Shown in pieces: positions 21,754 to 24,376 of a DNA stretch of 40,353 nt. Source of the DNA: Monosiga brevicollis MX1 (lineage: Eukaryota); the NCBI RefSeq assembly GCF_000002865.3, contig NW_001865082.1, positions 129,894-170,246 of the forward strand, in the 5' to 3' direction. Each line of letters starts with the position of its first letter. Positions within the stretch are counted from its first letter, which is position 1. Made by a program: the position numbers and the translations under genes. The notes under the pieces are model-generated. The model worked only from the letters and a program-made list of their open reading frames with translations. It made no database searches and was not told the origin of the DNA.

Positions 21754-24376
21754 ATGGCAGCGATGGCGCGGGCTACGTACCTGTCGCGTCGGCCCTGGGT
21801 GCCCCTGTTGCTGCTGCTGCTCATTTGGGTTCAGTTGTTGTGCTTTGGGCCTGTATCAGCCGTGCCGGTGAAGACGGCGCAGGCGCAGCAGACGTTGGGT
21901 CGCTTGCTCGCTGCCGCTCAAGCTCAAGCTGACCCCAACGCTCCTCCTGCTGCTGGTGTTGGTGTTGGTGCTGGTGTTGGTGCTGGTGCTGGTGCTGCTG
22001 GAGGTGGAGGTGGAGGTGGAGGTGTTGAGTCATTGTTCAAGTCCGTGTCAGAGCCATTTGCTGCGGCTCGTGGTCAAATCAAAGCCTTCACCGCAACGTC
22101 TGAGGTACGGGGCTGCTGGGTTTCTATTCTGGGGGTCATCGTTGCTCGCTCCGCCGTTCCCCCGCCGTTCGGATCTCAAGGTTGCCATCGCTACTCGCAG
22201 ATCGCACCCCGCTTGCCGCCGTCGTCTCCGCCGTCGCCGCCGCCGCCGCCGCTTGAGCAGCTGCTTCCGCCCCCGCCCTTTTATCCACCCCCTCGTCCCC
22301 GACCAACGGGCATGCCCCGCTGCAAGCTTCCCGGCACTCCACCGGAAGATCCTACCTACAACCTTCCTCTGTGCCCACCCCCCAGCCCATTTTCCACCGC
22401 TGCGCCTTTTCCCACCACCACTACCGCCGCCACTGCCGTTCCCACTGCTTCCATCACAAATCCCCGCCGCAGCAGCGCCACCGCCGCCACTATCATCACC
22501 ACCACCACCACCACCATGGCCCCGCCCGCTCATGTTACTTCCTCCCCGCCAGCCGATGCCTCCCACCACCATACCTTAAACGTGACCCACAATCCCGGCA
22601 CTGCCCCGCCGCCCCCTTCTTCCCTCCCTTCCTGGGCCCTGCCCGTCGCCATTTGCACCGGCGCGTCCATCTTGATCCTCCTCGTCATCATTGCCATTCT
22701 TCTCGTGCGCCGCCGTCGCCGCCGTCACATTGCTTACTCTTATGCCGATCTCAATGAGGTAGGCTGAGCTTGCTTATTCTCTCTCCCACTTGGCAATAGT
22801 TTACATCTAGTCGCCCACAACGCATCCCCCGCCCCTTTCTTTTTGAAATAACCTCACTCAAACGTACCCCTCTGGGCAGGCAACTGAAGAGCTGCTCGAT
22901 GTGAAAACCCAGGGTTACCCCGGCGTGGCAGCCCCGGCCATATCTTACAACGGTACGCTTGCTTCTTTTGACCCCTTCCGTCCCACCCTCTTCTCTCCTT
23001 CCTCGCCGTCTTCTTGGGCTCACTCAACCGTGATGACCAACCAAAACCCCGGCCCGGCAGACATCAAGGCTTGCATGTTCGATGCCGACCCTGCAGACCT
23101 GGCTGGCGTACTCAGTCAGGCCAACAGCAAGGGCGATCTGCTTGAAGAGCAAGACGAGTTTGGCTTCACCCTTTTATCCTGGGCCATTCGCCTCGAACGC
23201 GCCGACCTCATCCCCACCTTTCTTGAACTTGGCGCCAACCCCGCCGTTATTGACACCAAGCACCAAACCCTTCTCCACCTGGCTGCGGAACAGGGTAACG
23301 ACCAAGCCTGCGCACGCGCTTTGAGCGCCCTTCTGGCCGCGGTCGCCTCCTATCCAGACATTGTCAATGCCTACAACGACCAAGGCTACACCTGTCTTAT
23401 GCAGGTCGCTGCTCTCAACATGCCCATCTCCGCCCGCGTCCTCCTCGCACAACCGGCCTGCAACCTGCGTCTTGGTGACCCTCGAGGACAAACCGCCCTC
23501 CACCTCGCCATCCTCCACAGCTCCCGCGACGTCCTCCACGAATTTCGCTTAGCTCAACCTCAGCATCCTCTCTGGACAGATTGCACCGCCACCGGTGCCA
23601 CGCCCCTCCATCTGCTCGCCACTCACAACTGCACAGACGAATTGGAGTGGCTCCTGTCCACGGGTGCCGTTCGCTTCAACTCAGAGGACGGTCAAGGCCG
23701 CACCTGGCTGCATTGTGCCGTCCTCGAAGGCCATCTTCAACTTATGCAGCACGTCCTCGCCACCCTTCACGTCAATCAACAGATGTTGATCATGATGCAC
23801 GCTGCCCGCGACGGTACCCGTCCCATCGATCTGGCCACCCACCTGCATGCCACAGATGTCGTTGAGTGGCTTGAATCCCATTCAGCTCGCCTCAGCTCCA
23901 GCCTGGCCCCAAACATGCTGGCCCCACGCAAACTGTCCAGCCATGCCATGGACGAGGAGGAGGATCAAGGCACCGGTTATAGCGATGGTTGCGGCAACTC
24001 CCCCGATTCCTTCCGTGCCGACTCCTCGGAAGACGAGAGTCGCCGTGGCGCTAGTCGTACCGCTAGTTTGTTGTTGGCCGCCGGGTCAGCCTCAGACGAC
24101 CACGCGCAAGTGACTGCATCCACCGCTGCCTCCTCCCGCACCAGCTCCTCCAACCTTTCTCTGCAATCGGCCGAGTCCCTGAACAAGCGCCCTAGCCGCA
24201 GCCGTGCGGCTTACATGCGCGACCGCCGCCAAAGAGCAAAAAAGTCAGAGGATGCCATGGAGAGCCGCGTGGCCGCCCTGCGCTCAGAAGAGATGGCCTT
24301 GCGCGCTGCCCTTGCCGAGCTTCAGCGAGACAAGGAAGCTTTGCTCAACAGCTCTCAGGACAACACTGAAGCGTAA
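21754..24376 (+). CDS. Type I membrane protein: signal peptide, Pro/Thr-rich ectodomain, TM, ~7 ankyrin repeats, Ser-rich linker, C-terminal bZIP-like domain
   Basis: Signal MAAMARATYLSRRPWVPLLLLLLIWVQLLCFGPVSA. TM WALPVAICTGASILILLVIIAILLV plus RRRRRR (22633-22725). A phase-0 intron GAG|GTAGGC...GGCAG|GCA (22759-22879) joins the 21541-22767 and 22901-24376 ORFs in frame. ANK cores GFTLLSWA, HQTLLHLAA, GYTCLMQVA, GQTALHLAI, GATPLHLLA, GRTWLHCAV and GTRPIDLA. Basic region plus heptad leucines at 24185-24347. Confidence 0.82.

Follow-up and report, generated by a model that had tools for sequence, protein, structure and literature searches.

The question raised by this locus, at positions 21,754–24,376 of the forward strand of a 40,353-nt stretch of DNA of the choanoflagellate Monosiga brevicollis (the window, in whose coordinates all positions are given), is whether it encodes one protein in which a receptor-like membrane anchor, a block of ankyrin repeats, and a bZIP-like domain occupy a single chain and, if so, what such a protein might do. 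The original prediction described a Notch-like receptor carrying its own bZIP. The sole database protein to match exon 4 at 100% is MONBRDRAFT_39256 (A9VDA0) of M. brevicollis, which is on record as an uncharacterized protein of 830 aa in a one-member cluster, with ankyrin domains only. The RefSeq model retains introns 1 and 3 as coding sequence, and starts at the second in-frame ATG, at 21763; the start codon at 21754 in the present model is a putative one. With all three introns (96, 121, and 108 nt, each GT..AG) spliced out, the frame comprises 765 aa, the length that had been estimated from the letters alone, and runs through four forward-strand exons placed from the contigs and the reading frame. 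Exon 1 (21754–22104, 117 codons) encodes the predicted signal peptide and the Ala/Gly-rich start of the ectodomain; exon 2 (22201–22758) encodes a Pro/Thr-rich, mucin-like stalk, the transmembrane (TM) helix, and the start of the juxtamembrane region; the 73-nt exon 3 (22880–22952) encodes a juxtamembrane linker; and exon 4 (23061–24376) encodes the ankyrin domain, a second linker, the basic-zipper domain, and the stop codon.

The joint between the TM exon and the ankyrin exons is critical, given that an artefactual gene model, in which a TM gene adjoins a separate, soluble ankyrin-zipper gene, would explain the stop codon found inside unspliced intron 2, and that an internal start yielding a soluble isoform is compatible with the contigs. 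However, introns 2 (22759–22879, phase 0) and 3 (22953–23060) were both spliced at GT..AG joints in five of the eight runs compared, out of 13 listed. These five runs (X3, X5, X7, X8, and X12) represent four studies; X8 and X12 are recorded as marine metatranscriptomes, and hence as wild marine RNA, whilst X3, X5, and X7 are taken to be RNA by guess. Both introns were unspliced in X1, as expected of DNA, and X9 and X13 yielded no contig spanning intron 2, which is not counter-evidence to the joint. Because the 22758/22880 joint between the TM and ankyrin exons is present in spliced contigs, the objection that these are two genes is removed, and the artefact is largely refuted and, in our estimation, very improbable. 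The clean phase-0 intron that had been predicted is thus intron 2. Splicing of intron 1 (22105–22200, GT..AG) was seen at the coordinates of the record in X3 and X7, and with a loose end in X5. A single X3 contig extends from 21637 to beyond the stop codon, but continues past 25000, so that it alone defines no transcript; the contigs of X5, X7, X8, and X9 end at 24617–24691. We conclude that this is one real, expressed gene encoding a TM, ankyrins, and a basic-zipper domain in that order.

Several smaller features of the locus were seen alongside. Intron 1 is in frame and free of stop codons, and was kept in one X5 contig; its retention would add 32 residues, including two Cys, to the ectodomain. 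Around the CCG repeat at 22215–22261, X3 and X7 have 88 letters versus 61 in the window (27 extra letters, in frame), and the protein may be nine residues longer than the window shows; either the assembly may have collapsed here or the strain may differ. An upstream ATG, out of frame and in weak context, lies in the covered 5′ leader, and its 58-codon frame (21695–21871) extends into the beginning of the main frame. The TGACGT boxes upstream, at 21181 and 21211, are unremarkable, as the window holds 26 such boxes versus 18.6 expected. Further afield, the window contains a multi-exon, divergently oriented pectinacetylesterase/Notum-family gene upstream on the reverse strand (about 18519–20590; Pfam PAE, E 2e-27), an antistasin-repeat exon on the same strand (15544–16092), and, on the forward strand, an exon with a tRNA-editing (YbaK-like) domain (37306–37884) and a 518-codon Pro-rich frame that matches no Pfam family (12253–13809).

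The protein has two hydrophobic peaks only, at aa 16–34 and 268–286. The first reads as part of a predicted signal peptide (aa 1–36; 21754–21861; hydropathy 2.36), with three Arg, a hydrophobic core, and small residues at −3/−1, and the second belongs to the single predicted TM helix (aa 262–286; 22633–22707; hydropathy 3.08). A stop-transfer cluster of six Arg follows immediately (22708–22725). Under the positive-inside rule, an Arg cluster after a TM helix puts the tail in the cytosol, and because the six Arg follow the second peak, the tail would be cytosolic even if the signal peptide were left uncleaved. Pro makes up 21% of the ectodomain and Ser/Thr 20%; its mature part has two Cys, and there is one N-glycosylation sequon. 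No Pfam family was found in exons 1–2 up to an E value of 10, and hence no EGF repeats and no LNR/Notch domain ahead of the TM; nor did inspection of the ectodomain sequence reveal an LNR-like switch or a furin-type RxxR site. In Notch, the WxP motif of the RAM region is the contact to CSL. The tail contains no such motif, and the sole WxP match of the protein sits in the signal peptide. The membrane-proximal layout that had been predicted (signal peptide, Pro/Thr-rich mucin-like ectodomain, one TM helix and then six Arg) and the absence of EGF, LNR, and RAM were therefore both borne out, the former at the level of hydropathy and sequence.

The ankyrin domain (about aa 328–601; 23063–23881) matches Pfam Ank_2 with an E value of 1e-21. 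Its structure model (pLDDT 90.5) has eight helix pairs, corresponding to the seven repeats predicted, plus a degenerate first one that had been overlooked. The block follows the TM in the same chain, as it does in Notch receptors, and superimposes on the ankyrins of NOTCH1 with a Z score of 23.9 (rmsd 2.2, 230 aligned residues). However, this score ties with those of MIB1 (24.2), a DARPin (24.1), ankyrin (24.0), and EHMT1 (23.8), and the top match exceeds IkB-zeta and Bcl-3 by no more than 2 Z units. Because the fold scores tie and NOTCH1 ranks 50th by Foldseek, the ankyrins can be assigned to neither Notch nor IkB, and Notch is not among the best 60 of 321 ankyrin sequence matches. Bacterial ankyrin effector families (NCBIfam) were rejected as candidates, since their matches fall far below the cut-offs and reflect the repeats only. 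The label "Notch-like" is consequently an analogy only, in the order of TM and ankyrins, given the missing EGF, LNR, and RAM and an ankyrin block that resembles other ankyrins as much as those of Notch.

A linker (aa 602–702; 23882–24184) separates the ankyrins from the C-terminal domain. It is Ser/Thr-rich (30%) and likely disordered; a Ser/acidic linker had been proposed, but its acidic part amounts to a short patch. The domain beyond it begins with a basic region containing 10 Lys/Arg (aa 703–726; 24185–24256) and continues into a leucine zipper (24257–24346) of five heptads, with Met, Leu, Leu, Leu, and Leu at d. The first zipper position is preceded, at a distance of exactly ten residues, by an Arg, and basic region and zipper are predicted to form one continuous helix of 56 residues. 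This register pattern, which was fitted after the fact, did not occur in 20,000 shuffled versions of the tail or in any of 202 other proteins. In Pfam scans, bZIP_2 was the top match in four of the five that included the domain and second in the fifth (E 0.006–0.29), but all scores to bZIP_1 and bZIP_2 (11.7–17.1 bits) stayed below the gathering threshold, the best being 17.1 versus 22.3 bits, and 14.2 versus 27.6. Plain coiled coils such as Spc24 and macoilin score like bZIP in the same scans. Among PDB matches, FosB occupied two of three, at an E value of about 5.6 and with close agreement at the zipper end, and a dynein light chain ranked above it. In the ESM Atlas, the ten best neighbours that bear a family all belong to the bZIP clan, with a top score of 0.82, and rank behind two unnamed clusters; the tool itself offers such neighbours as leads only. 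A fold search with the C-terminal helix gave no match, which is uninformative for a single helix.

The residues that contact DNA in bZIP proteins are Asn13, Ala16, Ala17, Ser/Cys20, and Arg21 (PMC4736632, accessible part). Here, the five positions are occupied by Arg, Tyr, Met, Arg, and Arg, so that one of the five is kept, or two if the register is shifted by one residue. The Asn, by comparison, is kept in all 13 Monosiga bZIPs catalogued in the available part of the supplement of PMC4736632 (judged by eye), a catalogue from which 39256 is absent. Replacement of the Asn is known in oomycete bZIPs, where Cys, Arg, or Val takes its place and only the Cys class has a characterized member (PMC4046829, as far as available); those candidates with Arg for Asn resemble the Monosiga protein in this respect, but are soluble, and the likeness implies no relationship. 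Judged from its sequence, then, the C-terminal domain is bZIP-like rather than a canonical bZIP: the predicted bZIP-like C-terminus stands as regards its basic helix, five heptads, and Arg spacing, and falls short in its Pfam scores and its contact residues.

The zipper also bears on the partner. Its "a" positions are Val, Glu, Leu, and Lys, and it has an Arg–Arg g/e pair. Glu or Lys at "a" and Arg–Arg g/e pairs disfavour homodimers and favour heterodimers. Because Glu and Lys occupy two of the "a" positions here, a heterodimer partner is favoured, which argues against the transcription factor having been called "self-sufficient". The same features could serve a protein that is never cut, and whose zipper and IkB-like ankyrins tie a partner transcription factor to the membrane, to be freed by a signal, with a degenerate basic region that makes the protein a dominant-negative partner. 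Such a trap would account for the lost DNA contacts, the charged "a" positions and Arg–Arg pair, the Fos-like zipper end, and the fold scores of IkB-zeta and Bcl-3. It would, however, leave superfluous both a nuclear signal and a basic region that is under selection, and we regard it as unlikely, albeit a rival to be taken seriously.

Evidence of selection came from the marine strain in X8, for which 24 coding differences were listed (exon 3 has two more, which are not among them and were left out). Silent and replacement changes numbered eight and three in the ankyrins, three and four in the linker, five and none in the basic-zipper domain (aa 703–765), and none and one in the ectodomain. The result for the basic-zipper domain has a P value of 0.0006, or 0.002 with a strong transition bias, versus 0.25–0.39 for the linker, and four of the five silent changes fall in the basic region and hinge. 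On this comparison, the basic-zipper domain is kept by purifying selection, the numbers being small (five silent changes, in one species or a close sister).

Relatives of the domain were sought widely. With the ankyrins plus tail as query, 54 of 7,996 scored candidates matched and were, besides the gene itself, generic ankyrin proteins with 25–53% identity over part of the query. For the C-terminal region, 2,069 candidates of similar length contained no match except the gene itself, 301 shorter ones contained no match at all, and none of the 202 proteins compared scored against the C-terminal or TM region. A HMMER search with exon 4 was swamped by long ankyrin arrays, and no orthologue was recognized among the best 150 of 23,305 matches; a distant one may be hidden among these arrays. 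Metagenome scans returned 66 and 593 pattern matches, with no confirmed relative, and annotated phages contained none either. A scan of viral contigs, on the other hand, revealed a small phage ORF with a nearly identical basic stretch. The pattern R-A-A-Y-M-R-[DE]-x-R, chosen with the query's own letters, matched 75 viral stretches, whereas a shuffled pattern, the single control, matched 12 (redundant copies counted). In the 62 distinct stretches, the free position is Tyr in 42, Trp in 8, and the Arg of Monosiga in 3, and the motif family is therefore real. When 28 ORFs with the motif were scanned with Pfam, three endonuclease VII domains above the cut-off and one portal protein were identified, most ORFs were unnamed, and no model covered the motif itself; PHROGs searches with 14 ORFs added one more HNH-type nuclease and one protein resembling replication initiators.

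Sites of the form R-A-A-Y-M-R-[DE]-[YW]-R occur in the viral contigs L002–L076 (e.g., L019:220–552, L075:362–661, and L002:118–771). In phage-like ORFs, the motif precedes endonuclease VII domains, follows zinc ribbons, or stands at the terminus of a small protein; in one group of short unnamed phage-like proteins, it is followed by a coiled coil, in a loosely bZIP-like arrangement.

From its sequence, the phage motif would fit a basic helix that binds nucleic acid; the likeness to Monosiga may be convergent, and does not show gene transfer. A zipper in bZIP register follows the motif in two of the 62 distinct cases, and several more have a coiled coil further on. That the remaining 60 lack such a zipper, in otherwise unrelated phage proteins, is in keeping with a different role for the Monosiga protein, namely a receptor or adhesion adaptor with an ordinary oligomerizing coiled coil, the basic helix of which binds RNA, lipid, the cytoskeleton, or an acidic protein, with a bZIP likeness that is convergent. 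The sub-threshold bZIP scores, equalled by generic coiled coils, would be expected of such an adaptor, and the tail has a juxtamembrane Tyr-x-x-Leu motif, which may have a part in endocytosis or phosphotyrosine signalling. Less readily explained are an Arg and heptads at exact bZIP spacing, language-model neighbours from the bZIP clan, and the presence of a nuclear-signal consensus, and we consider the adaptor unlikely.

That consensus, of the bipartite type, has one match in the 473-aa tail, which is the basic region itself. Lying where a long linker ends, it would also suit a protein that remains uncut, is imported into the inner nuclear membrane by means of the signal, and ties chromatin to the envelope, for which a precedent is reported in CREB3-type bZIPs (PMC12652670, accessible part). 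The mucin-like ectodomain and Tyr-based sorting motif would instead point via the Golgi to the cell surface, and the folded ankyrin block would need to pass the side channel of the nuclear pore; this tether seems to us improbable.

We then compared the layout with known systems. Like Notch, the protein has a signal peptide, a single TM ending in Val and a basic cluster, a cytosolic ankyrin block of similar size, and a nuclear-signal consensus beyond the ankyrins, where Notch has its nuclear signal. Unlike Notch, it lacks EGF, LNR, and WxP/RAM and has a mucin-like stalk and a basic-zipper domain of its own. The ordered set of domains that defines Notch (EGF, Notch, TM, and ankyrin; PMC6040629, in the part available, which also describes a Mylnosiga Notch) does not fit it. 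The "Notch-like" gene of Monosiga in the accessible part of PMC2770060 is another gene, because it has EGF, two LNR, and three ANK. ATF6 and CREB3/OASIS similarly have a bZIP-type domain held by one TM, but are type II proteins with an N-terminal bZIP, a canonical basic region, no ankyrins, and cleavage by S1P/S2P (PMC13294678 and PMC12652670, both in part). In the Monosiga protein, by contrast, the TM precedes the zipper, which lies on the cytosolic side at the C-terminus, 440 residues further on. Yeast Spt23/Mga2 resemble it in combining ankyrins and a TM in a processed transcription regulator, but are tail-anchored, with an IPT domain and proteasome processing; Nrf1/NFE2L1 resembles it in having an N-terminal anchor and a C-terminal bZIP, but has no ankyrins and a bZIP that starts in the ER lumen. 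The fungal bANK proteins ToxE, Apf2, and Aps2 likewise join a basic DNA-binding region to ankyrins in one chain, although they are soluble, with the basic region N-terminal, four ankyrins C-terminal, and no leucine zipper (PMC4109984, as far as available); the order is reversed in Monosiga, with a zipper and a TM added. No TM–ankyrin–bZIP protein was seen in the accessible part of a mainly vertebrate screen of membrane-bound regulators, which covers Notch, ATF6/CREB3, and SREBP (PMC13294678), and neither the gene nor the layout is described in the openly accessible literature and the few subscription papers covered. The architecture is therefore apparently undescribed; it belongs to neither Notch nor the membrane-bound bZIPs, and may work like them.

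How the protein might work can be set out as a series of steps. The mucin-like stalk would be shed by an ADAM or rhomboid protease, and presenilin would cut the stub within the membrane, directly ahead of the Arg cluster. The TM of Notch1 ends in Val and then a basic cluster, and gamma-secretase prefers short ectodomains (PMC7248309, accessible part), for which reason shedding would have to come first. The TM end of the Monosiga protein resembles that of Notch1, a basic cluster at this place being common to most type I proteins and no sign of cleavage. The proteases are on hand: Monosiga appears in the trees of ADAM10/17, Aph1, nicastrin, and presenilin in the available part of the supplement of PMC2770060, and in a further tree there that we read as Su(H), and is credited with ADAMs, gamma-secretase, and CSL in the accessible part of PMC4810162. 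A tail of roughly 52 kDa would then enter the nucleus by way of its bipartite signal, where the zipper would pair (a second bZIP being a likelier partner than another copy of the same protein), the non-canonical basic helix would grip DNA with altered specificity, and the ankyrins would recruit partners. That the tail is freed by shedding and intramembrane cleavage, imported, and acts as a zipper-paired transcription regulator is the reading we favour, tentatively, at slightly less than an even chance. The bolder version, a one-component receptor and transcription factor in which a cut mucin-like receptor releases a tail that binds DNA itself through a phage-like basic helix, as a Notch-like relay built independently and without CSL, appears doubtful. 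Because Monosiga also has CSL, a CSL-free route is not forced. The proposed CSL-independent analogue of Notch thus retains the TM, ankyrins, and basic zipper on one transcript, the nuclear-signal consensus, and the proteases listed for Monosiga, and is weakened by the presence of CSL and the non-canonical basic region.

The membrane-bound transcription factors that we found described either have their DNA-binding domain ahead of the TM (ATF6, CREB3, SREBP, and MYRF), or, as in the Notch tail, borrow CSL. If true, a basic-zipper tail of its own on a receptor that has an extracellular stalk would add another design to these, in the animals' sister group, and the protein would be a candidate substrate for choanoflagellate presenilin and ADAM proteases. 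Such a protein is missed by threshold-based domain screens, as illustrated by its absence from the published list of Monosiga bZIPs and by a database model that reads through two of its introns. If the proposed reading is correct, it would make testable whether surface-to-nucleus signalling by intramembrane cleavage existed before Notch.
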